DNA of 39,439 nt from a candidate division WOR-3 bacterium. Its GTDB lineage: Bacteria; Hydrothermota; UBA3072; B12-G15. The stretch lies in NCBI GenBank assembly GCA_965649055.1, contig CBFGJG010000014.1, positions 1 through 39,439 of the forward strand, in the 5' to 3' direction. The notes under the pieces were generated by a model, which was not told where the DNA came from, ran no database searches, and saw nothing but the letters and a program-made list of their open reading frames with translations. Shown one piece after another: positions 2-34,108 of the stretch. Made by a program: the position numbers and the translations under genes. Every line of letters begins with the position of its first letter. The first letter of the stretch is position 1.

Positions 2-1159
2 GTATCCATTCTCAATAGGTGCCCTCAACCTTATCTCGTTCCCTGTTATGGATGTAGTATCCATATCCATCTCATAATATTTTGAAGTCCCATAAACAAT
101 AGCCTTTCCATTATCAAAATCACACCAGATTGATATCCTGTTCCATTTTTTCTGTTGATATTCATCAATCGTCTTATCAGGGTTATTCAAAGGTGCAAAG
201 AACTTATTAAACAAGACAATGTCAAGTTTCTTACCATTTTGAATTATTGTAATAACACCGGATAAATATTCTGCTTTTCCTGGTATTGAGTCAAGGTAAA
301 CATAAATCTCTATTATCTTCTTTGATAATGTATCAACCATCGGATATTTTACAAAATAGTCTCCACTATTATTATTCGCATATATTTTTAAAGAATAATA
401 AACTCCTACAGTATCATTACCTGTTAAAGGTGACCTCGCATGCTCCTGTGTCCTCGAGATGTAATTATTTACATCATCTACCCTTTCCCATGTAGGAGGA
501 ACATTTGGGTCTGTCCCCGCTTGTTCCATATCCTCATAATCATAAAGGATATCTGCAAATTTAGACCAGTTTGAAGTTGCAAGGAATGTCCTTCTATAAA
601 CAACACCATTATTCCACAGACCATACATCATAGCATTACCAAGTGTAGCACTTGTAAGATTAACAGGTGAAGCACAAACCTGCAGAACATATCCAGGAAG
701 CTGTGTAAGTTGCTGACCTGCCCAGCTTGAACCGGTATTTGTTGTCATATAAACACCATTTGAAGTAGAAAGTAATATCCTTGCAGTTGTTGTTGTCCAT
801 ACATTCTGTATACATGCATCAAGAAGTTCAAGGCCTACCATAGAAGCAAGAAAACCACCATTTGTATAAGAACCTGTCGGGATATCTTTTCTGAAAGAAA
901 GTGTTTCACTTTCTGAAAATTCAGCATCTATCTTATACCATAATCTTTTATTTACAAGGTCAGCTAACAAGAATTTTGGAAGTATTTCTATCTCTTCAAC
1001 CCAGATTATTCCTTTACCAGTTGTATTCTTTGCCATAGTTCCTATTGTCCTGTAGAGTTTGAAGAATCCCTGGTTCTGTGTTATAAAATACCTATTCTGG
1101 TTCAAATCATATGCAAAAAAGACAAGTGGTAGGATTAATAAAAATGATAATTTTCTCAT
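2..1159 (-). CDS. Secreted/surface protein, partial (3' end runs off window start); contains an Asp-box/BNR-like motif
   Basis: Not in the ORF track because the stop lies outside the window. ATG at 1159 with GGAGG RBS at 1166-1170; open frame to position 2. N-terminus MRKLSFLLILLPLVFFAY is a signal peptide; GVYMTTNTGSSW resembles an Asp-box. Directly follows the PorV-like gene. Confidence 0.8.
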   Translation of the reverse strand, partial: MRKLSFLLILPLVFFAYDLNQNRYFITQNQGFFKLYRTIGTMAKNTTGKGIIWVEEIEILPKFLLADLVNKRLWYKIDAEFSESETLSFRKDIPTGSYTNGGFLASMVGLELLDACIQNVWTTTTARILLSTSNGVYMTTNTGSSWAGQQLTQLPGYVLQVCASPVNLTSATLGNAMMYGLWNNGVVYRRTFLATSNWSKFADILYDYEDMEQAGTDPNVPPTWERVDDVNNYISRTQEHARSPLTGNDTVGVYYSLKIYANNNSGDYFVKYPMVDTLSKKIIEIYVYLDSIPGKAEYLSGVITIIQNGKKLDIVLFNKFFAPLNNPDKTIDEYQQKKWNRISIWCDFDNGKAIVYGTSKYYEMDMDTTSITGNEIRLRAPIENGY

Positions 1160-1171
1160 ATATGACCTCCT

Positions 1172-2143
1172 TTAAAATCCCATCTTTAATGAGACACGAT
1201 GAACAAATGGAAGATAACCACCATCAGAGAATGCATAATCAAATCCTATCTTCCCTACATTTATTCCTAAACCTGTATTCAAACCAAGGACACCATCATT
1301 CCTTCCCAATTCGTATCCTACCCTTAAAGCTATCATATTCTGGATAACACCTTCAAGACCTATACAATATCTCGTTGCATTATCACCGGGTGAAGCAATA
1401 TCAAAAGCACCTCTAATTTTAAGCCCTTCTATATCATATAAATTTAATGAAACTCCACCTTTAAACTGCATTGGTAGTGGATATTCTTTAAACTTCTTTG
1501 TAGAATCCACAATAACACCATCTTCCCAGTCATAATAAGAACCAGATGGCCTTGTATCAGGACCAAAATTAAGAAGTGCAATACCTACCTTTAAATCCCT
1601 GAAATTCGTAACATATAATCCACCTATGTCAAGCCCACCACCCCAGATTTCTATAGAACCAAGTTCACCGGGTGGATATTTCTCCCTTAATACCTTTAAC
1701 GAAAACCCGAATGAAAACCTGTCTGTAAGGAATCTGCTGTATGTTGCACCTAACTGATAGGCATAATACGAAATCATCTCACCTGTTTCTTCATTCCCAA
1801 CCATTGTCTTCTCAAAAGAACCTGAATAAAGACCTGTATAAAATATAGCAACATTACCATATAGTCCAAAATCATAACTTACTGAAAGACCCCCATGCAT
1901 AATACCTGTCCACCAGTTATTGTATGCAAAGAAAGTCCCGATACCCTTAGAAAGACTCAGTCCAGCAGGATTCCAGAATACAGCAGAAGGGCCTTCAGCA
2001 AGGGATGCATATGCTTCACCAAGACCAATCGCCCTTGCATCAAGACCAATGTCAAGGAACTTCATTCCATTAAGACCTATCTTCGCAAACTGAGCACTCA
2101 AAACTGAACATAAAAGCAATAGTAAAAGTATACTCTTTTTCAT
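1172..2143 (-). CDS. PorV/PorQ-family (UPF0164-like) outer-membrane beta-barrel protein
   Basis: Signal peptide; signature FLDIGLDARAIGLGEAY...AVFWNPAGL; alternating beta-strand pattern; C-terminal HRVSLKMGF with terminal Phe. Confidence 0.85.
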   Translation of the reverse strand: MKKSILLLLLLCSVLSAQFAKIGLNGMKFLDIGLDARAIGLGEAYASLAEGPSAVFWNPAGLSLSKGIGTFFAYNNWWTGIMHGGLSVSYDFGLYGNVAIFYTGLYSGSFEKTMVGNEETGEMISYYAYQLGATYSRFLTDRFSFGFSLKVLREKYPPGELGSIEIWGGGLDIGGLYVTNFRDLKVGIALLNFGPDTRPSGSYYDWEDGVIVDSTKKFKEYPLPMQFKGGVSLNLYDIEGLKIRGAFDIASPGDNATRYCIGLEGVIQNMIALRVGYELGRNDGVLGLNTGLGINVGKIGFDYAFSDGGYLPFVHRVSLKMGF

Positions 2144-2151
2144 CTTCCCTC

Positions 2152-4224
2152 CTACCTTAAAATAATGAATTTATCAACTTTATAGTCAACCAATTTTCCA
2201 GACTGGTCATATTGTTCCACCTTGTATATGTAAAGCCCACTTGCAACCTTAATATCAGCACTTGATACCATATTCCAGAATAACGTTCCTATAGGTGCCC
2301 TATTCTCCATCTCGTAAACTTTATCTCCACTAACTGTATAAATTATAACCCTTGCATTTGCAGGAAGGTTTGTGAATGCAATCTTGTCCTCATACTGTGG
2401 TTCCCAGGAAGCAGAACCATAATATGGATTGGGAACAACTTTTACATTATCAAGTGTAGATGAAGCAGGTGGTAACAGTATCAATGGAACAGGGGCACCT
2501 TTGGCATCTTTCTTATAATTTATCTGCCCTGTTTCAAGTGAAGGAATAACCTGTGGTGATGTTCTTCCAATATCATAAGCAGTAACTGCATAATAATACG
2601 GTATACCGGGTGTTAAGGTAGAATCTATGAAACTATGCTGAACATTGTTCTTATCAAATTCAGCAAGTAATTCCCAACCAACAGGTTTCCAGGTTGCCCT
2701 ATAGACCCTGTATCCAGCAAAATCAAGCAAACCATCTATTGGGTCAGGTGTTTTCTCTGCCTTATCATCCCATCTTAACTCCACCTTTCCTTCATCTATA
2801 TAATATGTAAGTTCAGGAACCTCTGGCGGTAATGGAATAAGCCAGTGGACATCCTCATCAGGTGCAGATGGATGAGCAGGGTCTGAATTCTGTGAACCCA
2901 TATAGTATGCCATCATTGCTGCATCTGCTACCTGCCTTGCACCAAGGACATATCCATTACCAAACTTAATGTCCTCACCACCATTTAGTCCATAACCAAC
3001 ACCTGCTGCAAATACGAGTTTTAGAGTTTCACCATCTGCAATCTGGAAAGGACCTGATGTTAACAAGAATCTATAGTCAAATGTTGCTGCATTCACATCA
3101 TATGGAATAGGCATAAAGTAATAACCCAAACTCATATCATGTGTTGCAGACATATATTGATATTTGTTCTCATCTGTTCCCGGGTCATTGTTCCAGTTCC
3201 ACCACTGGTGTGAATAAACAGTAGGAACCCTTGAACCAGCACCATAAACATCATACCAGTCAAATTTTGCAGGTGGTGCATATATAAGCCTGCCAAATAT
3301 ATAACCTGCACAACCACCACCCTCTGTTTTATCATTCTCAGGTGTGGTTGGGTCATCATCATCATATATATAACTCATATTCCTTGGTATGTAATACTTT
3401 GTACCTGGTGTTAATAAAGTTTCATCAGGGTCATCACCCCAAATCTGATACTGGTCAGGAACACCATCAGGTTCTTCAAGTGTTGTATCTGAAAGGATTG
3501 TATAATTATCAGTTGGGCTTGGACAATAAGCAAAATTCGTCCATTCACCCCTTGTATCACCATCAAATGAAACCATATCATCTATGTGTGGATTTGTCTC
3601 ATCATAATCGCAGTTGTCAGCATCAAAGCATATTGATACAAAAACATTTTTTAAGATTGTAGGTGCTGTAACACCTGTAATGTTGAATTTACTCTTATTA
3701 TAAACAATATATAATTCATAACCGATAAACTGGTCAAATGGTTTAACACTCCATTGGTATGCCTTTTGAATAACCTTAAGACCTAATTTATATGAATTGC
3801 TGTAATAACCTTCATAATCCTGATAAATTGACACGATGTCCTGCTGTGATTTTTTGTAAGGAAGTGTTATCCATCCACAGTTTTCAGCTGGATCTTCTGA
3901 TGGCGAAAACTCGTAAGAACCATAATCAGCATGGGAAACATAAATATTCTCACCAACCTTAGCACCTATCCAAAGACGACCTTCCCATTGATAATAATAC
4001 CCAAGACCACCCGGCCAGTCAAAGGATGGGTTTCCTGTCTGGTCCGCATTAGGGTCACCAAATACACCATAGTTTGATTCAACTGTCCAGACACTTCCAG
4101 TTGTATGTGCCTTAAAATCAGGTGTGCATGCCTTTGTATTTAGACCCTGATTATTGTAGGTATTTACATTCCTTGCATTTACAAGAATAAAAATAAGAAG
4201 TAAAGCGATTAAATATCTTTTCAT
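2152..4224 (-). CDS. Secreted protein with FN3-like domain and C-terminal T9SS type-A-like/FlgD-Ig sorting domain
   Basis: Signal peptide; FN3-like VELRWD...FAGYRVYR...YYYAVTAYD; C-terminal VKVVPNPY...IAFTNLP...IYTVSGDKV...WN...VASGLYIYKV...KFIILR. Confidence 0.8.
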   Translation of the reverse strand: MKRYLIALLLIFILVNARNVNTYNNQGLNTKACTPDFKAHTTGSVWTVESNYGVFGDPNADQTGNPSFDWPGGLGYYYQWEGRLWIGAKVGENIYVSHADYGSYEFSPSEDPAENCGWITLPYKKSQQDIVSIYQDYEGYYSNSYKLGLKVIQKAYQWSVKPFDQFIGYELYIVYNKSKFNITGVTAPTILKNVFVSICFDADNCDYDETNPHIDDMVSFDGDTRGEWTNFAYCPSPTDNYTILSDTTLEEPDGVPDQYQIWGDDPDETLLTPGTKYYIPRNMSYIYDDDDPTTPENDKTEGGGCAGYIFGRLIYAPPAKFDWYDVYGAGSRVPTVYSHQWWNWNNDPGTDENKYQYMSATHDMSLGYYFMPIPYDVNAATFDYRFLLTSGPFQIADGETLKLVFAAGVGYGLNGGEDIKFGNGYVLGARQVADAAMMAYYMGSQNSDPAHPSAPDEDVHWLIPLPPEVPELTYYIDEGKVELRWDDKAEKTPDPIDGLLDFAGYRVYRATWKPVGWELLAEFDKNNVQHSFIDSTLTPGIPYYYAVTAYDIGRTSPQVIPSLETGQINYKKDAKGAPVPLILLPPASSTLDNVKVVPNPYYGSASWEPQYEDKIAFTNLPANARVIIYTVSGDKVYEMENRAPIGTLFWNMVSSADIKVASGLYIYKVEQYDQSGKLVDYKVDKFIILR

Positions 4225-21800: not shown

Positions 21801-21985
21801 TCCTCAACATAAGATTCAAAAAGATCGATACTGATCTTTGAATAACTTGAACCTTCAGGTAATATGTTAGAAATGTAGTTTTCTAATTTCTGCTTTAAAA
21901 TAGAGCTTATCTTATTAAAAAATATTATAAAAAAGAGGATAATAATTAGTAAAAACGAAAAAGAGTACAGGAAAAATCTCTTCAT
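18839..21985 (-). CDS. tamB: Translocation/assembly module TamB (AsmA-like) protein
   Basis: N-terminal membrane anchor; long beta-taco-like repeats (ISGRLENP, FSGTPSSPEVFG); C-terminal DUF490-like SGSMKKPEF..YSKPP...LTLGKYITKNLY. Confidence 0.8.
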   Translation of the reverse strand: MKRFFLYSFSFLLIIILFFIIFFNKISSILKQKLENYISNILPEGSSYSKISIDLFESYVEELKIKDFGTAERIIIKYYPLELLLKRVRFLSVEDAEIFLKIEKNGEKSDIRFPSLKINEIKIKSLRLKFNEQFIDINSTLSLLSDEKKMLLRIKRFSCLTDYIDLKDAFGDILISDKILLNLYSVKSKNSEFEIGGNLDSLSISGKMFLSDLKNIPLDGEINFKLIYKDKKILGDGFINTISYKNYKIKDVSFRVKDENIYFRSSNFSGEIKGILKDNRELKIHFEKFDLSNLIENIKETVFSGGITLSILRDKVKFNSSLKGTFYGLYSDTLVLNGYYEDKIINFEKIYSSNGKIDGKIRFSVGDTSISGFINCNNLTFYNLAFFSKFLKDGVVSFQISFEGNNSSGSLWFERINGRNFSFKSTGVNFEIEDIKRLNGNFDIFFSDAEIYNKNIENVYFTGFFKRLDFETKGLIKSKYFTMKTEISKNNNILEIKKINIKTSFDTIFSISPTRIVFQNRNLNLSGFSLSNGGEFKTGLNLNLKRNGEIEGGLSVLNLNLRDIKNILDREVSGFIDIVMSISGRLENPFYTITLKGKEVGEEYYFGDSITVFLSGTKEKAELSMKIFERNKSSQISGEYNFKDKFFIGNIELRSASDWVFILFKEFVRAENTDVSGVVKFSGTPSSPEVFGNMSINNLNIVEKNSGITVYNLNGKVICENNIVNFRDFKGKLGNGDLNFDGFYRIKDKNYSLDFNIKNGYIAYDYYSAGFDCKINLADDIKGVKILGDVNVKEATVTLPFYFKESGNKLNKLYINMNVYADEGNVWLKNENADIEFSGNAKIFYDWGIPSAIGEFKVLQGSFKYLFTEFKIEDGKFTFSKRGDIDPDIKIFATHLAGSNDTIILSVSGSMKKPEFSIYSKPPKDLSEIILVLGLNISWQDLLNISSVNNTFTNTAFRAFDFWARSRLQSEVSKLLGMDVAKIEKYESYKLTLGKYITKNLYFQLGTEFYPTAKVEYNAEYRFSNWGTVKYKDTMDSRSLMLKLTIRY

Positions 21986-22434
21986 AGATTATCTACAATT
22001 CTATTTATAATGTCATTTATTTCATCTTTTTTTAATTTATCTCTTGAAAGACTAAACAATTTACTTAATTCATCTGTTATCCTTATTGTTTCAACCTTTA
22101 TCATCCCTATTTTTATGCTTTTGAAAATACAGGAAAAAATATAATCATCCATAAATATCTTAAAAAAAACCTTGTAAGTTTTCCCTTCTATTAATATCTC
22201 ACAGATATTCTCTTTTAAAAGGTTACCCATTTTTTCTATGGATGCTGCAATACCTGAAAGTATTGCAGAAAGCGAAAGTATGTTCAAATCCTTAAAAAAA
22301 CCATACTCATCAATTAGCTGCCCACTCTTGGTAGTTATAAAAGCACCATTCACCTTTGTCTTATCAATAAAATCTTTTAAGAGCTCCTGGGTTTTTTCTG
22401 AAGATATGGTTGATATAAATAATTTTTCTTGCAC
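21982..22434 (-). CDS. mglB: MglB-like Roadblock/LC7 protein
   Basis: GTG start; AFITTKSGQLI...LSLSAILSGIAASIEKMGNLLKE...IGMIKVE...TDELSKLF plus a C-terminal helix (DEINDIINRIVDNL) parallels Myxococcus MglB as recalled. Confidence 0.7.
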   Translation of the reverse strand: MQEKLFISTISSEKTQELLKDFIDKTKVNGAFITTKSGQLIDEYGFFKDLNILSLSAILSGIAASIEKMGNLLKENICEILIEGKTYKVFFKIFMDDYIFSCIFKSIKIGMIKVETIRITDELSKLFSLSRDKLKKDEINDIINRIVDNL

Positions 22435-22766
22435 TACAGCTGTCCCTCAATATATTTTGCTCCATTCTCCATCTCTACTTTTAAACTACCAACATTTGTA
22501 TCTGCGTCAGTTAAAGCAGAAAGTATGAAATTTTTTTTGGTAACAATAAAAATGTATCCATTTTCTCCTTTTATCATAAGAAAAACATTCTTCTTTATCT
22601 GAATCTTATCTGCAATTTCTGAAGCGATTTTGGCAGAAAGAGCCGAAACAAGTTCAGTATCGATGCCTTTTTGTGCAACTGATTTTATTACAACACCGTC
22701 AGGAGCAACAACATTTACACATAAGACCCCTTTTTCTTTTATTATGTTTTCAAGAACCTCATTCAT
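22434..22766 (-). CDS. Roadblock/LC7 domain protein
   Basis: KGVLCVNVVAPDGVVI...DTELVSALSA...IKGENGYIFIV...NVGSLKVEM. Confidence 0.85.
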   Translation of the reverse strand: MNEVLENIIKEKGVLCVNVVAPDGVVIKSVAQKGIDTELVSALSAKIASEIADKIQIKKNVFLMIKGENGYIFIVTKKNFILSALTDADTNVGSLKVEMENGAKYIEGQL

Positions 22767-22767
22767 A

Positions 22768-23529
22768 TCACAACCCCAGATTGACTTTTAATTTTTCAAA
22801 TGTTTCTTTGCCTTCAAGCATTAACATCCCGAGTTCCGCATTTTTGCTTGCTAATATAACAAAAATTACCGGTTTACTATAAAGTGCAAGCAGTCTTCCT
22901 TTGGGAAAATCAAAGAACATATATTCAAATAAACCCAGTTTAATCTTTTTAATAACATAGTCAATATCTGAATATACTGATGCAATCATTGCAGCCGTCG
23001 ATTCAACATCAACATATATCTTTAACTCCTCAGCAATAAGAATACCTGTTTCGTCTATAAGAATCGTTCCCATTATATCATCATTTTTATCACACATTTG
23101 TTTAAGTATAGCTTTTAAAGGAAGAATTCCTTTTTCTTCTTCTTTTACTTCTAATTTTTCTTCAGGTATTGTTTCTTCTTTTTCTGTAACTTCTATTTTT
23201 TTATCAGCTATTTCAACACTTATATCCTTTTCAACCTCTGGAATTAAACTAATCTTTGATGTTAACTTATCTTCTAATTCCTTTATTTCTTGATTTTCAG
23301 GGTCAATCCTCTTCCCTTTTTCTAAGATTTTTTTTGCATTGTCTTCATCTCCTTTCATCAAATATGCCTCTATAAGCTTTATATAGACTTTAATATATTC
23401 CTTTGTTTCACCTAATATTGAATTTAAAACTTCTATTGCCTGATCTATAAGATTGTTCTGGATATAAAAATCAGCAAGCATTATAATCATATCAACAGAT
23501 TTAGGAGAGCTCTTCAGTTTTTCATCCAA
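22768..23529 (-). CDS. TPR + Roadblock/LC7 fusion protein
   Basis: TTG at 23529 follows a strong GGAGGGGG RBS (the ORF track's 23562 start is likely too long). N-terminal TPRs (IDPENQEI), acidic linker, C-terminal GTILIDETGILIAE...ESTAAMIAS...AELGMLMLE roadblock. Confidence 0.8.
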   Translation of the reverse strand: MDEKLKSSPKSVDMIIMLADFYIQNNLIDQAIEVLNSILGETKEYIKVYIKLIEAYLMKGDEDNAKKILEKGKRIDPENQEIKELEDKLTSKISLIPEVEKDISVEIADKKIEVTEKEETIPEEKLEVKEEEKGILPLKAILKQMCDKNDDIMGTILIDETGILIAEELKIYVDVESTAAMIASVYSDIDYVIKKIKLGLFEYMFFDFPKGRLLALYSKPVIFVILASKNAELGMLMLEGKETFEKLKVNLGL

Positions 23530-24496
23530 TTTCCCCCTCCAGTTTAACAATTTCTTCAACAAGATTTTTTAAACCTGAAACCATTTCTTCGACTTCCCTT
23601 GTTGCGAGTTTATTCCTCGAAATTTTCAGGAATTTATCGAAAAACTCTAAACATTTTTTAAAATCAAGAATTTTTAAATTAAAATATCCAAGATTATAGA
23701 ATAAAGTAGGTTCATCCGGATATTTTTGCAATAATTCTTCCATATATTTGATTCCTTCTTCAAATTTCTTCTCCTTCCATAAATTATCTATATTAATTAT
23801 TTCTTCTTCTTTCAGCCTTTCCTTTCTCCTCTCTTCCTCTGTTATTTTTAAAAGTCCACTCATATAAAGCCCGTACAATGCCTTAATAGTCTTAAATTCA
23901 TTCCCTTTAATTTTAACAATATCCTTAATGGATCTTTTCCCATCTATCATGGATAATATTTCCCATTCTTCGCTTGTAAGACTTATATAGTCTTTTTTTA
24001 CAATTTCATCAGATATTGAAAATATTGTGGACTCGGGTGGGAGTGCAGATAACAATCTTTCAGTCTCGTCAATTCTTCTTGCACCTTCCATTATGAGATT
24101 TTCAATCCTCATATTCAATTCGAGTTCCTTTAATGGTTTTTTTTCTGTTTCTTCAAAATTAAAAAAACCATCTTTTAACTTTAACAGCGAGAAAATTTCA
24201 TTTTCAACTATTGATTTTAATACAGAAGATACCTCTTTTATATCAACCATGTTCCCGGTTATTAACTCTTCTATATCTTCTCTGTCATTTATTGAGTTTA
24301 TTATTCCCCTTTTCTGTAATTCCTGAATCATCTTTTTCCCCATATCAAGATAAATAAGGAAGCCTTCTCTAAAATAAAGTATGTATTGTAAACCATCTGA
24401 AGTAATAATTCTAAGCTGTCCGGTCTTTTTTGAAAATGAGATTAGCTGAAAAAGCTCAAAAAGACTGAGTTCTTTTATTGGTCCTTCAATTGCCAT
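23522..24496 (-). CDS. DUF4388 (PatA-N-like) domain protein with C-terminal TPR
   Basis: MAIEGPIKELSLFELFQLISFSKKTGQL; GFFNFE; IENLIMEGARRIDE; LTSEEWEILSMIDGKRSI; C-terminal YPDEPTLFYNLG. Confidence 0.88.
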   Translation of the reverse strand: MAIEGPIKELSLFELFQLISFSKKTGQLRIITSDGLQYILYFREGFLIYLDMGKKMIQELQKRGIINSINDREDIEELITGNMVDIKEVSSVLKSIVENEIFSLLKLKDGFFNFEETEKKPLKELELNMRIENLIMEGARRIDETERLLSALPPESTIFSISDEIVKKDYISLTSEEWEILSMIDGKRSIKDIVKIKGNEFKTIKALYGLYMSGLLKITEEERRKERLKEEEIINIDNLWKEKKFEEGIKYMEELLQKYPDEPTLFYNLGYFNLKILDFKKCLEFFDKFLKISRNKLATREVEEMVSGLKNLVEEIVKLEGEIG

Positions 24497-27121
24497 TTAA
24501 ACCTCTTTCGACAAATCAAGCAATTTCTTTGCTGCGTTTATAGCATCCTGTGCTTCTTTACTTTCTTCTGTGTCAGGCCATTTTTTTATTATTTCCTGCC
24601 ATATATTTATGGCCCTTTCAAATTTCCCTAGTCTTGAAAGAACTGATGCAAGCAGTTTGTAAGCATTTACGTTTTTTTCATCAAGACTTATTGCATATTC
24701 GAGTGAGCTAATAGCTTTTGATTCCTGATTCATCTTATAATATATCATACCTTCAAGTAAGTAAATATCGCTATCACCGAAAGAAATTTTTTTCAAAAAT
24801 TCCAGTGTTTTCAATGCACTTTCAAACTCAAACAATTTAAATTGAACCTTAACCATCAATTTAAGATAATCAGGATTTTTCTCGTCCATCTTTATAATAC
24901 TTTCAAGAAGGTTTTTGCTATCAAAATAATTATTTTCTGAATAATAAATCTTTGAAAGAATAAACATCGCTTCCTTGTCTTCGACTCTCTGAACAACATC
25001 TTTAAGGATTTCTTTTGCTTTCTCAATTTTACCTGCATTTGCAAGCAGTTTACCATACCTTGTTAATATCTCATCCTTTTTAGAAATACCAACTATCTTC
25101 TCAAGTGTCTCAATTGCACCTTCAATCTCTCCCTGTCTTTCCTGCAGTTCTGAATACAGTATAAGCCCTTCAATATCTTCCGGGTTTCTTTCAAGAAGTA
25201 ATTCTATCCTCATTCTTGCAAAGAAGTAATCACCATTTTCCATAAAAACTTTTATAAGTTCTTTTAATGCCTCTTCATCATCCTGAATATTTTTTAATAG
25301 ATCAATTGCTTCTCCATATAATTTTTTCTTTCTGTAAATTTTTGCAAGTAATATTGTCGCCTTTTTGTTCTCAGGTTGATGTCTTATTACTTCCTGTAGT
25401 TTTTCAGTTGCTTTATCAAAATTCCCAATTTCGTAAAGATTTTCAGCCTGTCTTTGTATCTCGGCCAAATCTTCTTTTATTTCTTCTTTGGTGAATAAAT
25501 CTTCAAAAAGATTCTCTTCTTCAACGACCGGTTCTCCTGTCTTCTCTATTTCCATCTCATGGGTTAATTCTCTTGCGATAAGAACATCAAGTTTATCAGA
25601 ATAAACATCAATTCCGAGTTTAAATCTATTACTCGTGTAATAAGGATTTATTTCAAGTGCTTTTTTTGTAAACAGTAATGCTTCCTCAAACTTTCCTATT
25701 CTTGAGTAAGCGAAACCTAAATTGTAATATGCTTCTGAATATTGTGGATCATTTTTCAATGCAGATTTGAAACAATGTATTGCATCATCAAATCTTGAAG
25801 TGTTAAGATAAAGAAGTCCTAAATAATTGAATGCAATCGGATAGTTATCCTTAAGTTCAAGTGCCTTTTTGAAATATGATTCAGCTTTCTCATAATCTGC
25901 TTCCTGTAAAAAAATAAGCCCCATATTCAGATAGGCATCTGCATATTCGGGGTCAATTGAAATAGCTTTCAAAAAATATTCTTTACCTTTATCTTTTTCA
26001 CCTAAATGATAATGGACAATACCAAGATTATTGTATGCTACAACATATGTTGGGTCTATCTCTATTGCCTTCAAATACCATGACATTGCCTCTTTAAGTC
26101 TACCAAGCCTATGACATGCAACACCAATATCATTAGGAATTTTGGGAGAACTTTTATCTCTATTAAGTGCTTCGGAATATTCAATTATTGCCTTCTCATT
26201 ATCATTTTTTAAAAGATATATTTCACCTATATTTTTTTTCACTATTACGTTATCCGGTTCTGCTTCAAGTGCTGTGATAAATTCTTTTAAAGCCTCATTG
26301 AACAATCCTTTATTTCTGAAAACCATTCCCATTGTGTAATGGGAAAGGAATTTATTATCGGGTCTGGTAACATCCGTTTCAGCAAGAAATTCTTTATAAC
26401 CGTTGTGTCTATAAAAATCAAGTCCTAAACTTGGTTGCGTATTTGCAAGGGCTGGATTAAGTTTAACAGCTATCTTTGTTTCTTCTTTTGCCTTCTCATA
26501 ATCACCTTTTTCTCCATAAACAAATGCAAGAAGAAAATGTAATTCTGCATTATTAGGATTTATTGCTATTGCGGATTTAAATTCATTAATTGATTTATCA
26601 AGTAAACCAAGATTATAGTAAACCTCACCAAGATGTCTGTATATTTCAGGAGAATTCTCAATTTTTTTCAGTCTTTTGAATATCTCAGCTGCATCATCAT
26701 AGAAACCTATTGCCTTTAGTGTAATACCATAATTTTTCAATATTTCTACATCATCAGGTTTTATATTGAGATAGGATTTAAAATGTTTTAATGCCTTAAA
26801 AAACTGTCCGGTATTTTTATATGCAATAGCAAGCCTCTTAATAATTTCAGTATTCTGTGGTGAAAGTTCAAGTTCCTGTTCAAGGCTTCCAATATCCTTA
26901 TCTATGTATCCCAATTTCTGATAAATAAAATCAAGGTTATTTTTTGCAAGTGTAAAATGTGGATCTATCTCAAGCGCTTTTTTCAGTTCATCTATGGCTT
27001 CCTGATAAAGACCTTTATTGTAATAAACCACTGCAAGATTATTATGTGCTGAAGGGTCTTTCTGATCTATTTTACTCGCAAAAAGTTTGAGTATCTCCTT
27101 TTCCTTTTCGCTTATATTCAT
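24497..27121 (-). CDS. Large cytoplasmic tetratricopeptide-repeat protein (about 20 TPRs)
   Basis: Repeated AHNNLAVVYY/AYNNLGIV/AYYNLGFAY...ALEIDP motifs; no signal peptide; acidic linker near aa 520-555. Confidence 0.9.
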   Translation of the reverse strand: MNISEKEKEILKLFASKIDQKDPSAHNNLAVVYYNKGLYQEAIDELKKALEIDPHFTLAKNNLDFIYQKLGYIDKDIGSLEQELELSPQNTEIIKRLAIAYKNTGQFFKALKHFKSYLNIKPDDVEILKNYGITLKAIGFYDDAAEIFKRLKKIENSPEIYRHLGEVYYNLGLLDKSINEFKSAIAINPNNAELHFLLAFVYGEKGDYEKAKEETKIAVKLNPALANTQPSLGLDFYRHNGYKEFLAETDVTRPDNKFLSHYTMGMVFRNKGLFNEALKEFITALEAEPDNVIVKKNIGEIYLLKNDNEKAIIEYSEALNRDKSSPKIPNDIGVACHRLGRLKEAMSWYLKAIEIDPTYVVAYNNLGIVHYHLGEKDKGKEYFLKAISIDPEYADAYLNMGLIFLQEADYEKAESYFKKALELKDNYPIAFNYLGLLYLNTSRFDDAIHCFKSALKNDPQYSEAYYNLGFAYSRIGKFEEALLFTKKALEINPYYTSNRFKLGIDVYSDKLDVLIARELTHEMEIEKTGEPVVEEENLFEDLFTKEEIKEDLAEIQRQAENLYEIGNFDKATEKLQEVIRHQPENKKATILLAKIYRKKKLYGEAIDLLKNIQDDEEALKELIKVFMENGDYFFARMRIELLLERNPEDIEGLILYSELQERQGEIEGAIETLEKIVGISKKDEILTRYGKLLANAGKIEKAKEILKDVVQRVEDKEAMFILSKIYYSENNYFDSKNLLESIIKMDEKNPDYLKLMVKVQFKLFEFESALKTLEFLKKISFGDSDIYLLEGMIYYKMNQESKAISSLEYAISLDEKNVNAYKLLASVLSRLGKFERAINIWQEIIKKWPDTEESKEAQDAINAAKKLLDLSKEV

Positions 27122-27746: not shown

Positions 27747-29480
27747 CTAACCTATTATGCTTGGTATATCAAGTATCAAACATGGGTTTCCATCACCTAT
27801 TATAGTAACACCGCTATATTCCCTCATAGTTCTTATAGCATAAGGAAGATGTTTTACAACTATCTCCATTGACTCTCCAAGTTCATCAACGGTCAAAATA
27901 TATTTTTCACCTTCAATATTTATAATTAATGCAGGCATACTTTCATCATACTCTTCTTCTTTTAATTTTAAAACAGAAGCCAGAGAATAAATAGGAATAA
28001 TCTCATCCCTTAACAAGGTAATTGGTTTTCCAAGTAGATAAGAAAATTGCTTCTTTGAAAGATTTATTGTCTCGAGAAGAAATGTCATAGGTATGGCAAA
28101 ACTATGTTCGAGAATATTAACAATATAAGATTTAATAATAGCCATTGTAAGAGGGACAAAAAGATTAACTGTTGTTCCCTCTCCAAACTTACTATGTATT
28201 TCAACATTACCACCTATTTTTCTCATAACATCACGAACTACATCAAGCCCAACACCTCTACCTGAGACAGTGCTGAGATTATCTTTCGTCGAGAAACCAG
28301 AAAGGAAAAGCAAAGAAACAAGGTCTTTCTCTGACATCTTATTTGCCTCTTCATCGTTAGCACAATAACCTAATTCTACCGCTTTTCTTCTAACCTTTGA
28401 AAAATCTATACCTCTGCCATCATCCGAGACTGTTATTTTTATTACTCCTTTTTCCCTCGAAGCATTGATAGTTATCTTTGCTGTTTCAGGTTTTCCTTTT
28501 CTGATTCTTTCTTCCACTGATTCAATACCATGATCAACAGAATTTCTTATTATATGAATAATAGGGTCGGAGATACTTTCGATTAAAGACCTGTCAAGTT
28601 CAATATCACTTCCTGTTATCTCAAGGTCAACAGATTTACCCATTTCTTTTGCTAAATCCCTAACATACCTTGGGAATCTGTCAAATATATGTGAAAGTGG
28701 GACCATCCTTATTTTCATCACCACATCCTGCAATGAAGAGATAAATCTGTTGTGTGTTTCTAAGACCTGTGAAAGCATTTCGTTCTTTGTTTCTTTTGCA
28801 ATATTTATAAGCCTTTCTTTAGAAATAACAAGTTCTGCTACAATATTCTGGAGATTATCAAGGTCTTCTATACCTATCCTTAATTCTTTTAATTTCTTTA
28901 TTTCCTTTTCTTCTTCAATTTTTTCTTCCTCTATCTCCTCTATACTTTCTATTTCTGAAAACTCGGATTTTACTTTCTTTATATTTGATACATCGGATAC
29001 ATTAATAATAAATTCAAAATAATCTTTCCCTTCTTTAATCTCTTTCATAGTGGGTGATACAGGATTCACTTCTGCAAGCATTTTCATCCTGTTTAATATC
29101 ATAAAGAATCTTGCTGTTGGAAGCATTGTGTCTTTTTTTAATACAACCTTCACATTTTTTTTATCCATTCCGATAAAAGATTCTATCTTATCAATTGACC
29201 TGATTATTTCACTTATAATATCATCTGTTATCTCTGTTTTTCCTTCTTTTACATCCTGTAAAATATTTTCAATCCTGTGTGAGATTGTAACAATATCTTC
29301 ATATCCCATTGTTGCAGCCATACCTTTTATTGTATGAAAAATTCTGAATATTTCTTCTATGGTCTTGCTATCATGTTTCTTTTCAAATTCGGGAATTATC
29401 AGATTTAGTTTATCTATATAAGAGTTAACTTCGCTAATAAATAGTTTCTTATATTTCTCAAATTGTCCGTTTTGATACAT
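27747..29480 (-). CDS. cheA: Chemotaxis histidine kinase CheA
   Basis: Hpt IFRIFHTIKGMAATMG; compact Firmicutes/Thermotoga-type P2; RMVPL, HIIRNSVDHGIE, DDGRG, GFST, SGRGVGLDVV; CheW-like P5. Confidence 0.96.
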   Translation of the reverse strand: MYQNGQFEKYKKLFISEVNSYIDKLNLIIPEFEKKHDSKTIEEIFRIFHTIKGMAATMGYEDIVTISHRIENILQDVKEGKTEITDDIISEIIRSIDKIESFIGMDKKNVKVVLKKDTMLPTARFFMILNRMKMLAEVNPVSPTMKEIKEGKDYFEFIINVSDVSNIKKVKSEFSEIESIEEIEEEKIEEEKEIKKLKELRIGIEDLDNLQNIVAELVISKERLINIAKETKNEMLSQVLETHNRFISSLQDVVMKIRMVPLSHIFDRFPRYVRDLAKEMGKSVDLEITGSDIELDRSLIESISDPIIHIIRNSVDHGIESVEERIRKGKPETAKITINASREKGVIKITVSDDGRGIDFSKVRRKAVELGYCANDEEANKMSEKDLVSLLFLSGFSTKDNLSTVSGRGVGLDVVRDVMRKIGGNVEIHSKFGEGTTVNLFVPLTMAIIKSYIVNILEHSFAIPMTFLLETINLSKKQFSYLLGKPITLLRDEIIPIYSLASVLKLKEEEYDESMPALIINIEGEKYILTVDELGESMEIVVKHLPYAIRTMREYSGVTIIGDGNPCLILDIPSIIG

Positions 29481-29851: not shown

Positions 29852-30271
29852 TTATCCTCCTTTTTCTTCTATTATTTTCTGAATATTTAGCAAAAGGAAC
29901 TTATCTTTGTCTACATTAAATACACCAGAAAGAAACTCTGGCGGGATTAGTTTTTTTAATGACTTTTGTGGAATATTAATTTCGCTTTCATCTATCTTCT
30001 TTATACCTTCAATTGTGTCAACAGTTAACCCGACCTTTTCATCACCATATTTTGTTATTACAACTATCGGGCTTTCATTTGTGCCTTCACCTTTGAATTT
30101 CTTTTTAAGATTTATCACCGCTATTATTTCACCCCTTAAATTAGCAATACCTTCAACAAATTTTGGTGCAAGTGGAACCTTTATTATTTTTAAACTTTCT
30201 ACTATCTCTACAACTTTTGAAAGTTCAATGCCGTAACCTTCATTGTTCAATTTAAAAGTTAGTATCTCCAT
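29852..30271 (-). CDS. cheW: Chemotaxis adaptor CheW
   Basis: FKLNNEGYGI..V.EI, VPLAPKFVEGIANLRGEIIAVINL, GLTVD. Confidence 0.95.
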   Translation of the reverse strand: MEILTFKLNNEGYGIELSKVVEIVESLKIIKVPLAPKFVEGIANLRGEIIAVINLKKKFKGEGTNESPIVVITKYGDEKVGLTVDTIEGIKKIDESEINIPQKSLKKLIPPEFLSGVFNVDKDKFLLLNIQKIIEEKGG

Positions 30272-30274
30272 TTT

Positions 30275-33200
30275 TCACTCCAGCCAGACGAGTTCAAATT
30301 TATTGTTTTCAAGTATATTTGGAACAAATCCTCTCACATTTTCCCTCACAAGATAAAGGTCTAATCCATGATATAAAAATATTACGGGAACATCCCTTAC
30401 AATCATCTCCTCTGCTTTTCTATAAATATCCCTCCTCACTTTTGGATTAAGTTCTCTCATTCCTTCTTCTATAAGTTTATCTACCTCTGGATTTGCATAG
30501 AAACTTGTATTACCAGGATCTCCCCTGTTCTTTGAATGGAATAATGGATAAAGGAAATTATCAGGATCACCATTATCGGATGACCATCCAAGCATATACA
30601 TTTGATGTTCTCCTTTATGGACAAGTTTTAGGAATTCCTTCCATGGATGTGTTCTAATATCTATATTAATACCAAATTTCTTAAACTGGTTTATCAGATA
30701 TTCAGCCCTTTTCATATTAGCAGCTGATGCGCTAACATCAAGAATATATGTATCTGGAAGACCATTTGGGTATCCTGCCTCTTTTAGTAATTCTTTTGCT
30801 TTATCAGGATTATAATCATATCCTTTTAAAGAGGGGTTATAACAATCAACACCAGGGGGAATAGGGCCTTTTGCAGGTGTTCCGTAACCATTATCAAGTT
30901 TCTTTAGCATATCTACCCTGTCTATCATATGGCTCATTGCCCTTCTTATCCTTACGTCAGCGAATGGCAGGTCTTCTTTTAACATATTAAAACCATAGTA
31001 TTGAAAATCCAAAGACATTTCCCTTACAAGGCATTTCTTCAAATTATCATCTTTCAGTATCCTGTCTATCTGCGTATATGATATACTTGCGATATCTACA
31101 AGATTTGCAATAAACATATCAAGTGATGTCTTCCTTCCCTCTTCATCTTTGCTTATAGTAAATTTTATTCTATCAACATAAGGTCTCCCAAATATATATT
31201 TATCAAATGCCTCAAGGATTATATGCTCACCCTTTTCCCATTCAACAAACCTGAAAGGACCTGTACCGATAGGATTATCATCGGGAGATTCTTTTAAGTC
31301 TTTTGGAATTATTGAACCACCAACAGTTGCAAGATTTGCAAACAAAGGAACATAGGTAAATTTCATATCCATTTCAAATGTATACCTGTCTATCACCCTA
31401 ACATCTTTTACAGAATCAAAGAAGAAGGCATTTGGTCCTGTCATGGTCCTCTTGTAAGAATAAACAACATCTTCCGATGTTATCTGTGAACCATTGTGTG
31501 AAAATATATTATTCTTCAGTCTGAAAGTTATTTTTTTACCATCATCAGAAATCTTCCAAAATTCGAGTAATGACGGGAAAACCCAGGTCTTGTATGCAAA
31601 TTCAAATATTCCCTTATATATCTGATGACCTATCCTACTTGATGTTGCATCTCCCATCTTAGAAGGGTCAAGGGTAACAGGGTCTGAAGCAAGATAAAGC
31701 CTCAGTGTATCTTTACCCTTTCCATTGATTATCTCTAAATTTGAAAACTGAGATTTTACATCATCAATTATCTCCTTCCCTTCATTTATCTTTCCCTGGA
31801 CATTTTTTATATCAAAAAGAGCAGTATCAAAAGAAGAAATTATGTTATCGAAATTTTTTGTTATATCTTCAATCAGGGTCTTCTGGGATATTACATTCTT
31901 TCTAAAATCATCAGAAATCTGCTCAATAAATTTCAAACTCATATTTGTCTCTGAAATAATAAGTGATGAAGATTCGAATTTTTCAATAAGATTTTTTAGC
32001 GAATTTGTAAGTTCATTAAAATTAATTGATAAAGAATTAACATCATTTTTTACTTCCCCAAGAAATTCATCAATATCAATTGATATTTTTCTGAATTGGT
32101 CTGATAGTTCTACCATCTGTTCAACGATCACATTTAGGTCTTCTCTACCAGCCCTTGCAGATTCAAGTTTTGCATAAAGGGAAAGATCCCTTAGATTCTC
32201 TGTTGCATTCTGAATAGACCTTCCTTTCTTCTTAAAGTTTGAAAACTCTTCCTGAAGATACTTATTTGTTAAAGATGCATTATCCACATATTTCAGTAGT
32301 TCCGTATCCTGCTCCTTTAACTTAATCAGAAGAGAGCTAAGTGTTTCACTTGTCCTTGTAATCTCTTTTGCACTTGAGATTATCTTATCAGATATATAAG
32401 TAAATCTACTCAATGAATCCTTTAAATTTTCAAGGACCGAGAGTTCTATCACATTTTTTATATTCTCAAAATTAATAGTCTTAAACTCATTCTCTATAAC
32501 ATTAAAAAGATAAAGAAAGTTCTGTATGTAATTTAAAAGAAATTCCTTGGAAATTCCCATATACATTTTCTTTTCGCTTGTCTCGATAAAATTGTTTATA
32601 ATATTCTTAAACACTTCATACAATGATTCTTTACTCCGGACAACCAGATTCACCCTGCTTGAGTTAAGGTAAAGATTTTCTGATAGATTTTTTATATTTA
32701 TTGTAGCATCTTCAAGAACTGACTTCGCTATGTTTTCCTTTTCACTTTCTGTTTTTAGAACATAGGCTACTTCATCGAAATTCCTGAATATATCTTTAAG
32801 ATTATCAATATCCTGTCTTAGGCTATCTGTAATTAAACCTATTTCACTTATAGGCTTTTTAAGTTCTGAAAAATTCTCTTTTAAGGCATTTGAAAAATTT
32901 CTTATTTCCTTTATTGAATTAACAATATTATTTACAATATCCATAGAACCCTGGGAGAAATTCCCGAGAAATCTCGCCACAACTTCAAAACCTTTTCCTT
33001 CTTCCCCTGAGTGATAGGCCTTTATTTCCGCATTTCTTGCAGTATTCATACTCCTTTCATTAAGTTCATACAACTTACCCATCAAACCAACTATGCCTTC
33101 ACACCTTATATTAAGTTCTTCAAGTAAATTTGTTGTATTGTTTGAAATTTCTATGAGACCGTTTATGATATCAAGTATATCCTGTAGATTTTCTATCACA

Positions 33201-33436
33201 ATATTTAACTTTTCTTTATTTTGTGTAAGATTGTTAGTTATTGATTCCTCAGTATCAAAAAATAACTTTATAGAATTGTATAGCATATTTAACTTATCTT
33301 TTATCTCTATAAGAATATTAGATATCATAGAATTATTTTCTGATATCGTATCTGAAAAATAAGTAACTGACTTTATAATATCATCTATCTTTTCTTTAAA
33401 TTTGTTAATACTTAATGTTATATCTAATTTTTCCAT
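30275..33436 (-). CDS. Soluble chemoreceptor: two tandem MCP signalling hairpins fused to a family-5 (DppA/OppA) solute-binding domain
   Basis: aa ~1-570 coiled-coil with two tip motifs (NTARNAEIKAYHSGEEGKGFEVVA; LSLYAKLESARAGREDLNVIV). aa ~575-1053 SBP_bac_5 (DPVTLDP, PIGTGPF, DVRIRRAM, YDYNPDKAKELLKEAGYPNG, GWSSDNGDPDNFL). No signal peptide or TM segment. Confidence 0.85.
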   Translation of the reverse strand: MEKLDITLSINKFKEKIDDIIKSVTYFSDTISENNSMISNILIEIKDKLNMLYNSIKLFFDTEESITNNLTQNKEKLNIVIENLQDILDIINGLIEISNNTTNLLEELNIRCEGIVGLMGKLYELNERSMNTARNAEIKAYHSGEEGKGFEVVARFLGNFSQGSMDIVNNIVNSIKEIRNFSNALKENFSELKKPISEIGLITDSLRQDIDNLKDIFRNFDEVAYVLKTESEKENIAKSVLEDATINIKNLSENLYLNSSRVNLVVRSKESLYEVFKNIINNFIETSEKKMYMGISKEFLLNYIQNFLYLFNVIENEFKTINFENIKNVIELSVLENLKDSLSRFTYISDKIISSAKEITRTSETLSSLLIKLKEQDTELLKYVDNASLTNKYLQEEFSNFKKKGRSIQNATENLRDLSLYAKLESARAGREDLNVIVEQMVELSDQFRKISIDIDEFLGEVKNDVNSLSINFNELTNSLKNLIEKFESSSLIISETNMSLKFIEQISDDFRKNVISQKTLIEDITKNFDNIISSFDTALFDIKNVQGKINEGKEIIDDVKSQFSNLEIINGKGKDTLRLYLASDPVTLDPSKMGDATSSRIGHQIYKGIFEFAYKTWVFPSLLEFWKISDDGKKITFRLKNNIFSHNGSQITSEDVVYSYKRTMTGPNAFFFDSVKDVRVIDRYTFEMDMKFTYVPLFANLATVGGSIIPKDLKESPDDNPIGTGPFRFVEWEKGEHIILEAFDKYIFGRPYVDRIKFTISKDEEGRKTSLDMFIANLVDIASISYTQIDRILKDDNLKKCLVREMSLDFQYYGFNMLKEDLPFADVRIRRAMSHMIDRVDMLKKLDNGYGTPAKGPIPPGVDCYNPSLKGYDYNPDKAKELLKEAGYPNGLPDTYILDVSASAANMKRAEYLINQFKKFGINIDIRTHPWKEFLKLVHKGEHQMYMLGWSSDNGDPDNFLYPLFHSKNRGDPGNTSFYANPEVDKLIEEGMRELNPKVRRDIYRKAEEMIVRDVPVIFLYHGLDLYLVRENVRGFVPNILENNKFELVWLE

Positions 33437-33484: not shown

Positions 33485-34108
33485 TTATTTGTTTGTTATG
33501 GTATAGTTTCTTTCAATCCTGTATACACCCGCAACGATAGAACCATTCGCTGCATTATTCAATTCCGAATAATTTAAACTTAATAGATAAAAAGTATAAT
33601 CACCGGCAAAGGTGAATATGTCAGGATATATTATTATTGAATTGGTATTCAAATATCTATCGTAAATTTTTTCAAAACCTTTATATATCAGAACCCTGTA
33701 AGCATCAGGTTCTTCACCTAAAAATGTCCAGGAGATTGTATCACCATTCTCATCTGATAAACTCAAAACACCATCAAATTGCTCAAGGTTTATACCTTTT
33801 GGTATCTTCACAGAGCAATAAACCGTTTTATATCCTTTTGCCTCAAAGGAAACATTGAACTGATTATCAGGGTAGACATAATCATTCAGGAACTTCCTTA
33901 ATGTATCAACATATATAAAAGAATAACCTGAGTCAATTGTAATAATAACATCCTTTATAAGCTTACCCTCTGAACTTTCAATATAACCTGAGAACCATCC
34001 ACCTTCTGAATTTGAATATTCAAATGAGACATATACCCAAATTTTCTTCTCGAAAATACATCCAGAAAAAGTTATAATCAAAAACAAAATTATAAATATT
34101 TTTCTCAT
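33485..34108 (-). CDS. Hypothetical lipoprotein
   Basis: MRKIFIILFLIITFSGC lipobox; beta-rich Ig/FN3-like mature part. Confidence 0.75.
   Translation of the reverse strand: MRKIFIILFLIITFSGCIFEKKIWVYVSFEYSNSEGGWFSGYIESSEGKLIKDVIITIDSGYSFIYVDTLRKFLNDYVYPDNQFNVSFEAKGYKTVYCSVKIPKGINLEQFDGVLSLSDENGDTISWTFLGEEPDAYRVLIYKGFEKIYDRYLNTNSIIIYPDIFTFAGDYTFYLLSLNYSELNNAANGSIVAGVYRIERNYTITNK

Follow-up and report, generated by a model that had tools for sequence, protein, structure and literature searches.

A soluble chemoreceptor of a candidate division WOR-3 bacterium with two unlike signalling hairpins and a C-terminal DppA-like domain: probably a natural single-chain pseudo-dimer

Chemoreceptors with two signalling domains in one chain have been described in a natural form (DosM) and in an engineered form (Tsr~Tsr), and both were compared with P0001, a receptor protein encoded by a candidate division WOR-3 bacterium (GCA_965649055.1, contig CBFGJG010000014.1) in the 39,439-nt stretch of DNA analysed here, called the window. 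P0001 is a soluble protein with two tandem signalling domains of MCP (methyl-accepting chemotaxis protein) type; other P numbers denote relatives and L numbers further loci. DosM (Vibrio cholerae VC1403) and the other F9 double-signalling-domain receptors are likewise soluble, with two tandem MCP domains, and are encoded beside che genes. In the parts of the published descriptions drawn on here, DosM has a triple-CheW partner (CheW3) and an F9 cluster, usually lacks a sensor and has been observed as an extended rod whose two ends each carry a tip (PMC9321776, PMC7534058); the triple CheW in the cluster is the signature used there for the DosM/F9 class (PMC9321776). The engineered Tsr~Tsr (Mowery et al. 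2015, PMC4692393), according to the part of that paper cited here, likewise holds two subunits in one polypeptide and is able to signal; it is artificial and membrane-bound, has identical halves and a designed linker, is prone to subunit swapping, and was built to give the trimer-axis and the peripheral subunits separate identities. The same part mentions natural soluble 'single-chain' signalling-domain proteins of unknown function in Rhodospirillum centenum and in a small number of further microbes (PMC4692393). The soluble MCPs of Thermotoga maritima (TM1143, structures 2ch7 and 3ja6; Tm14, structure 3g67) are homodimers of a single hairpin, with neither a second hairpin nor a solute-binding domain. 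Binding proteins of the DppA/HbpA/GsiB type are exported and free, and reach the receptor or transporter on which they dock from the outer side; one of them, DppA, passes signals to a chemoreceptor and is an indirect ligand source for E. coli Tap, in a source whose cited part treats free binding proteins docking on receptors, not fusions (PMC8050422).

Unlike DosM, P0001 is encoded with a single-domain CheW, carries a 477-aa SBP_bac_5 sensor that is always present in its family, and has two unlike tips, which stand side by side by prediction only; the two were set apart by published descriptions. The lack of a triple CheW, together with the constant presence of the sensor, argues against membership of the DosM class. 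Compared with Tsr~Tsr, P0001 is natural and soluble, and its halves have diverged throughout the family. Hairpin 1 could be aligned to T. maritima TM1143, and the cheC-type phosphatase of the P0001 operon was counted as a further likeness to the T. maritima soluble MCPs. The sensor has its fold in common with the DppA-type proteins (Z 34.6) and differs from them in being fused and cytoplasmic. No published description of an MCP-SBP_bac_5 receptor architecture was found, subscription journals and supplements lying outside the search. P0001 represents a conserved, unstudied chemoreceptor variant. In all probability short of proof, it is a naturally occurring pseudo-dimer in a single chain, and its DppA-like sensor is cytoplasmic.

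Pfam analysis of the whole protein gave MCPsignal (PF00015) at 36.6 bits in two stretches and SBP_bac_5 at aa 621-972 (E 4.8e-89). The MCPsignal score passed the gathering cut-off of 34.6 bits marginally in P0001 and was 51-110 bits in 11 distant full-length relatives. A preliminary description had ended the gene at position 31715, which truncates the open reading frame (ORF) at aa 574; the true ORF reaches 30275, and the C-terminal SBP_bac_5 domain lay outside what had been described and was missed. One of the readings in that description had the sensor at the midpoint of a double-ended rod; only a short, indel-rich helical cap (aa 287-331) was found between the hairpins, and the sensor is C-terminal. 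No signal peptide or membrane segment was found in P0001, whose N-terminus is polar and whose maximum 19-residue hydropathy was 1.29. This maximum was at most 1.48 in 12 of the 13 family members checked, the exception being P0006 (2.03), in which the stretch includes D and E. Seven relatives of 1051-1054 aa were 39-84% identical to P0001. Minor Pfam matches (DUF745, PhageMin_Tail, DivIVA, Baculo_PEP_C and others) were all below their own cut-offs and were taken as coiled-coil noise.

The tip positions proposed in the preliminary description proved correct, with 286 aa from G144 to G430 (Table 1). The two MCPsignal matches expected from it were seen as two stretches in the whole protein, and when the halves were scanned alone, aa 1-299 reached 34.8 bits (stretch aa 132-229) while aa 300-580 stayed under the cut-off with 18.3 bits (E 0.0022, stretch aa 418-530), so that Pfam alone would give no more than a hint of hairpin 2 in P0001, and on that score the second match would fail the check set in the preliminary description. 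An hhalign comparison of the family profiles for aa 1-292 and aa 293-580 gave a probability of 98.5% (E 2e-15, 256 columns) with tip 1 and tip 2 in register across a 2-residue gap (26-row family alignment); coiled-coil profiles may inflate such scores, and the tip register is nevertheless specific. An exhaustive HMMER search with aa 1-580 yielded a wider family of proteins of 1048-1120 aa, aligned over about aa 10-560. MCPsignal in two stretches plus SBP_bac_5 was present in all 11 distant full-length relatives tested, and the second hairpin was the better Pfam stretch in three of them (P0014, P0020 and P0021). A further 8 full-length genes were taken from species genomes; two stretches were present in 6 of them, and the second was the best in 3. 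AlphaFold2 placed helices at aa 332-429 and 432-565 around a turn at aa 430-431, which is the hairpin at aa ~431 that had been proposed, and hairpin 1 consisted of helices 2-142 and 144-286 in the model of aa 1-580. On the strength of the profile comparison, the distant relatives and the predicted helix-turn-helix, hairpin 2 is a genuine second signalling hairpin, homologous to hairpin 1.

Hairpin 1 was also matched to a known receptor structure. By phmmer, aa 10-256 aligned with residues 20-266 of the T. maritima receptor (3ja6_H/2ch7), gap-free until about aa 245, and Foldseek superposed hairpin 1 on 2ch7_B (prob 1.00, TMt 0.70). The top Foldseek rows for the N-terminal model were SMC, cohesin and Wadjet coiled coils with root-mean-square deviations (rmsd) of 20-120 Å; these were rejected as meaningless, only 2ch7_B being superposed. 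A broader homologue search with a 19-row alignment returned no family members besides the 8 already known, and a protein-atlas search with aa 1-580 returned generic MCP clusters only (0.91-0.92).

Within the N-terminal 575 aa, conservation among 26 diverse rows was highest at the two tips. Residue counts below refer to the 26-row family alignment, and the canonical reference was the tips of the three ordinary MCPs of the same genome. Hairpin 1 retains G-x-G-K/R-G-F-E-V-V-A, with G147 and G149 in 26/26, F150 in 25/26, E151 in 21/26 and A154 in 25/26 in the turn and following helix. Its preceding helix is altered (R134 in 25/26, K139 in 23/26, Y/F141 in 26/26 and H/Q142 in 26/26, H142 itself in 23/26); N135 (26/26) and I138 (25/26) are conserved as well. 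The changed positions correspond to L380, E385, A387 and R388 in the numbering of E. coli Tsr, part of the face that serves both trimer contacts and CheA/CheW binding. Hairpin 2 retains L-S-L-Y-A-x-I/L-E-A-A-R-A-G, so that the face of its preceding helix is kept (L420 in 22/26, I/L/V424 in 26/26, E425 in 26/26 and R428 in 21/26). The canonical Asn is replaced by Y421 (25/26), L434 (25/26) stands at the place of the turn Phe, and L444, immediately after the tip, is found in 26/26. The G-R/K-G-F turn that marks MCPs is present in tip 1 and absent from tip 2. The shortened turn reported earlier for tip 2 is real, at 2 aa shorter, and is restricted to the clade P0001-P0008; in deeper relatives it is 1 or 2 aa longer and so of normal or near-normal length. 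The two tips have thus diverged in complementary ways, and they have done so family-wide.

Three unrelated MCPs with two tips (P0121, P0022 and P0154) were fully canonical at both, which indicates that complementary decay is not general for tandem signalling domains. These are different kinds of double-tip receptor, with tip spacings of 448, 469 and 140 aa, one carrying HAMP_2 and one a weak fn3 match. No canonical paired E/Q methylation sites were found in the arms. Conserved Gln/Glu residues were observed at mirrored places of the C-arms, at aa 234 (nt 32735-32737; Gln in 16 and Glu in 8 of 26), which adjoins the E-E-Q stretch of the T. maritima receptor in the alignment, and at Q518 (nt 31883-31885; 24/26); both are candidate single adaptation or deamidation sites.

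The C-terminal part was nearest to DppA, GsiB and Opp-type binding proteins in NCBIfam, far under the equivalog cut-offs. Phmmer against the PDB matched the whole domain length (5u4o at 2e-67; HbpA; DppA at 1.6e-56), and VIA-align superposed 465 residues on 7kz8_A (Z 34.6, rmsd 2.1 Å), so that the two-lobe family 5 fold is present. D954 aligned with D408 of E. coli DppA (G-W-T-G-D408) and lies within a conserved W-x-x-D-N-G-D-P-D-N-F motif in which W951, D954, P958 and F961 were found in 26/26; in DppA, D408 holds the amino group of the ligand. No export signal was found for the domain, which starts at aa 577 of a protein without a hydrophobic segment. Among the 13 nearest free-standing relatives, 5 had a clear signal peptide or lipobox just before the point at which the fused domain starts, the remaining 8 being uninformative with a crude choice of start codon. 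It follows that the domain descends from binding proteins that are exported, and that in P0001 it has to function inside the cytoplasm. No partner ABC permease or ATPase was found among the 20 neighbouring ORFs scanned. SgrR is a cytoplasmic protein carrying an SBP_bac_5 domain, and its match to the C-terminal part of P0001 was weak (NCBIfam). In members of Edwardsbacteria/UBP2-like genomes, an Asp/Glu/hydantoin racemase-like gene lies directly upstream of the receptor gene (L010:4916-5809, L012:4982-5812 and L014:1267-2097), a possible hint at the ligand class.

Two AlphaFold2 monomer models were built with the 26-row alignment. The full-length model had a predicted local distance difference test (pLDDT) of 86.4 and a predicted template modelling score (pTM) of 0.69, and the model of aa 1-580 had a pLDDT of 83.3 and a pTM of 0.58. 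The single-chain four-helix bundle 6z0c_A fitted both models over 199/199 residues with an rmsd of 2.1 Å (full-length model 93..484, Z 20.3; aa 1-580 model 93..483, Z 21.0). The matched range starts 50 residues ahead of tip 1 and ends about 50 beyond tip 2, so that it is filled by four segments of about 50 residues, which would put both turns at the same end of the bundle. Three smaller four-helix bundles were fitted as well, 9u78_B at 99..473 (118/118, 2.3 Å), 6q6b_B at 114..455 (115/118, 2.5 Å) and, at the far end, 6n63_A at 7..566 (138/141, 3.3 Å). These matches serve as rulers of geometry and not of kinship, as helical bundles often give Z values below about 13. A number of long binding proteins aligned to model ranges beginning at aa 263-295, which suggests packing of the sensor domain against the end that holds the junction. 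The two tips are thus predicted to lie side by side in one four-helix bundle. Most family indels fell at the N-terminus, in the junction (aa 287-331) and at aa 555-571. A predicted complex of receptor aa 1-575 with CheW scored 0.01, which is uninformative either way.

The explanation favoured for these features, with a little better than even confidence, is a natural single-chain pseudo-dimer in which the two hairpins of one chain would act as a receptor dimer. The tandem hairpins, each of about 280 aa, would fold against one another within the chain to form a single four-helix bundle, one end of which would hold the unlike tips next to each other. At the opposite end the N-terminus, the junction between the hairpins and the end of the last helix would meet, capped by the single DppA-like domain. 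The hairpins may divide the jobs of a dimer, one standing at the trimer axis and the other facing CheA and CheW. Judged by the established arrangement of receptor trimers (PMC4692393), such a split would be more natural than the division into a CheA half and a CheW half. The solute-binding domain may close on a cytoplasmic ligand that bears a free amino group (peptide-like or glutathione-like), and the signal of closure would enter the last helix and pass by way of the cap along the bundle, to set the activity of the only CheA of the genome through the tips and CheW. As the genome yielded no flagellin gene, the output would probably be movement driven by type IV pili or based on polarity. A wider picture is offered tentatively, as possible and short of an even chance: P0001 would be an obligately asymmetric receptor whose axis and CheA/CheW hairpins were fixed by evolution, its cytoplasmic, monomeric Venus-flytrap would give one binding event per "dimer", and an internal peptide-like metabolite would steer pilus movement.

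Several points weigh against the pseudo-dimer. The geometry was read solely from the aligned ranges of structural alignments, and a monomer prediction, which cannot build the intermolecular alternative, tends to bury helices within the chain. Near tip 1 the pLDDT was just 71-78 in the full-length model, and DSSP gave no break there in that model and a break of one residue (aa 143) in the N-terminal model. The Pfam score of hairpin 2 alone was below the cut-off. Arm lengths and indel places suit a fold-back and a double-ended rod equally, since both topologies bring the variable parts together. In the sensor, the equivalent of R355, the carboxylate anchor of DppA, is not retained (A903 in P0001, D in 16/26). 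At four loci (L010, L012, L014 and L011) no che gene adjoins the receptor gene. Finally, the division of labour between the hairpins, the ligand and the output are all inferred.

The preliminary description had offered two readings, a single-chain pseudo-dimer and a DosM-like double-ended rod, and was right that the arm lengths are compatible with both. The balance leaned to the pseudo-dimer on account of the adjacent tips in AlphaFold2, the complementary tip divergence and the lack of a triple CheW. This lean does not decide the matter, since a dimeric rod lies beyond the reach of a monomer prediction. In the rod, two chains would pair hairpin 1 with hairpin 1 and hairpin 2 with hairpin 2 at opposite tips, with the solute-binding domains mid-rod, and in a cytoplasmic array the rod would connect one CheA/CheW baseplate with a second. 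The hallmark of DosM in the portions cited is a soluble protein that holds two signalling domains in tandem (PMC7534058, PMC9321776), the arm lengths and the co-located N-terminus, junction and C-arm end suit this topology equally well, and the monomer models, which cannot form dimers, are compatible with it. The rod was nevertheless judged unlikely. No triple-CheW gene was found in the genome, where all 4 CheW-domain matches are single and in separate frames, and 98% of the surveyed DosM homologues lack a sensor domain by the cited part of the survey (PMC9321776), whereas the P0001 family always has one. Each end of the rod would be a symmetric pair of one non-canonical tip that needs both trimerisation and CheA/CheW binding, tip 2 being without the turn motif and tip 1 without several canonical residues of the preceding helix. 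The junction is rich in loops with indels of non-heptad length, and both AlphaFold2 models predicted a fold-back.

A swapped assembly, in which hairpin 1 would pair with hairpin 2 of another chain to give the same local mixed bundle in dimers or in chains, was considered quite improbable. Swapping was seen in the engineered single-chain Tsr, in the part of the study cited (PMC4692393), and complementary tip divergence suits any pairing of hairpin 1 with hairpin 2, within or between chains; the short junction loop (aa 287-289) and the high local concentration favour pairing within the chain, the AlphaFold2 models close the bundle within one chain, and direct evidence for swapping is lacking. 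Signalling by hairpin 1 alone, in an ordinary homodimeric soluble MCP with hairpin 2 as a degenerate coiled-coil stalk to the sensor, would fit the low Pfam score of hairpin 2 in P0001 and its missing G-R/K-G-F turn and is very improbable, as tip 2 is with tip 1 the most conserved part of the N-terminal 575 aa (E425, Y421 and L434 above), hairpin 2 retains the canonical face of the preceding helix, and it is the stronger MCPsignal match in P0014, P0020 and P0021.

To determine how the family is distributed, 201 genomes were sampled from the phylum, including this one, with a match threshold of E <= 1e-10. A match was found in 44 genomes, always one per genome, so that the gene is single-copy. 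Of these matches, 42 span both tips. The open frame that holds the match measures 1047-1136 codons in 40 cases and is short, at 232-577 codons, in the remaining 4. By genus the family was present in 23 of 90, with 3/3 in the bacterium's own family and 19/20 in the sister family. Full-length members were also found in metagenome-assembled genomes labelled Candidatus Edwardsbacteria and UBP2, and P0004, which is 74% identical to P0001, is labelled candidate division WOR-3. One member on a 4-kb contig (L008:255-3436) is split into overlapping frames 255-1340 and 1202-3436, which is a frameshift or an assembly error.

In a quick tree of tip-centred segments, in which 48 of 89 inner branches stayed open and 40 of 128 canonical MCP rows were included by random pick, the hairpin-1 and hairpin-2 segments formed separate groups with mirrored inner branching. 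Hairpin 1 grouped with the canonical MCPs and hairpin 2 stood apart, with the exception of the long-branch row h2_P0021. The mirrored branching of separate groups indicates that the two hairpins have been paired since the origin of the family; an internal duplication and a fusion of two receptors would look alike in such a tree. Two short proteins, P0013 (307 aa) and P0017 (276 aa), fell inside the hairpin-1 group next to full-length members; they may represent fragments cut off at contig ends or else free versions with a single hairpin.

Table 1. Positions in the window of the receptor gene, its parts and the neighbouring genes
Feature	Position (nt)	Strand	Basis or remark
Whole ORF P0001, 1053 aa	30275..33436	-	Hairpin 1, hairpin 2 and SBP_bac_5 domain
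Hairpin 1, aa 1-289 (N-arm, tip aa 143-146, C-arm)	32570..33436	-	MCPsignal, T. maritima alignment, AlphaFold2
Tip 1, aa 132-154 (TARNAEIKAYHSGEEGKGFEVVA)	32975..33043	-	G-K/R-G-F turn kept; face of N-helix altered
Junction/cap between hairpins, aa 287-331	32444..32578	-	Loops 287-289, 320-323 and 330-331 with short helices between; AlphaFold2
Hairpin 2, aa 290-565, turn aa 430-431	31742..32569	-	MCPsignal 18.3 bits, hhalign, AlphaFold2
Tip 2, aa 418-441 (LSLYAKLESARAGREDLNVIVEQM)	32114..32185	-	Canonical face of N-helix kept; without G-R/K-G-F
Linker from last helix to sensor domain, aa 566-576	31709..31741	-	AlphaFold2 coil, pLDDT ~73-74 (full-length model); indel-rich in the family
C-terminal SBP_bac_5 (DppA/HbpA-like) domain, aa 577-1053 and stop codon	30275..31708	-	Pfam, PDB phmmer, VIA-align
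cheW, 139 aa, single CheW domain	29852..30271	-	4 nt downstream of receptor; Pfam CheW E 8e-31
cheY, 121 aa	29486..29851	-	Pfam Response_reg E 6.8e-32
cheA, 577 aa, Hpt-P2-dimerisation-HATPase-CheW	27747..29480	-	Sole cheA found in the genome
cheC/cheX-type phosphatase, 205 aa	27121..27738	-	Pfam CheC E 1.4e-18
874-aa TPR protein, DUF4388 protein, TPR+Roadblock/LC7 protein and two small Roadblock/LC7 proteins	21982-27121	-	Downstream of cheC
207-aa ORF upstream of receptor, lipoprotein-like N-terminus (hydrophobic stretch ending G-C)	33485-34108	-	No Pfam family
Two adjacent ORFs, 362 and 354 aa	7141-9295	-	Match T2SSE/PilT ATPase family

As shown in Table 1, the receptor gene heads a cheW-cheY-cheA-cheC operon, so that the receptor is encoded directly with CheW and CheA, as MCPs are. 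The TPR, DUF4388 and Roadblock genes beyond it are reminiscent of MglB-type polarity modules and may form an output module through which pili or polarity are controlled. Among the relatives, cheW follows the receptor gene in the window, L008, L009, L013 and L015; the full order cheW-cheY-cheA-cheC was seen in the window, L013 and L015, and cheA-cheC follows the gene in L020. In L013 alone, cheC is followed in turn by a TPR gene (in L015 the ORFs further on lay outside the scan), and in L011 a coiled-coil protein is encoded downstream of the receptor gene.

The genome (2.08 Mb, 93.8% complete) contained three other MCPs and 10 T2SSE/PilT-like ATPase matches, and no flagellin gene was found in it at this completeness. 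The 4 CheW-domain matches were the operon CheW, the P5 domain of CheA and two adjacent single-domain frames on contig C4. At about 61-73 kb of this contig (L006, L088, L090, L092 and L098) lies a second, kinase-less che cluster with cheR, cheB and the two single-domain cheW genes, and a PilT-like ATPase is encoded about 5 kb upstream of the cluster.

To our knowledge, the dimer subunits of every studied chemoreceptor are identical and differ in placement, at the trimer axis or on the CheA/CheW side, and in ordinary dimers the two roles are genetically inseparable because the subunits are identical. If P0001 is a natural single-chain receptor, these roles would already be separated in sequence, and each hairpin would be open to study alone. 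It would also represent a new coupling of sensor to bundle, through a single C-terminal solute-binding domain on one helix, and would show at work in the cytoplasm a domain family that usually counts as extracytoplasmic. As the receptor is encoded with the only CheA of an uncultured lineage in which no flagellin was found, it is probably central to movement or polarity in these bacteria.

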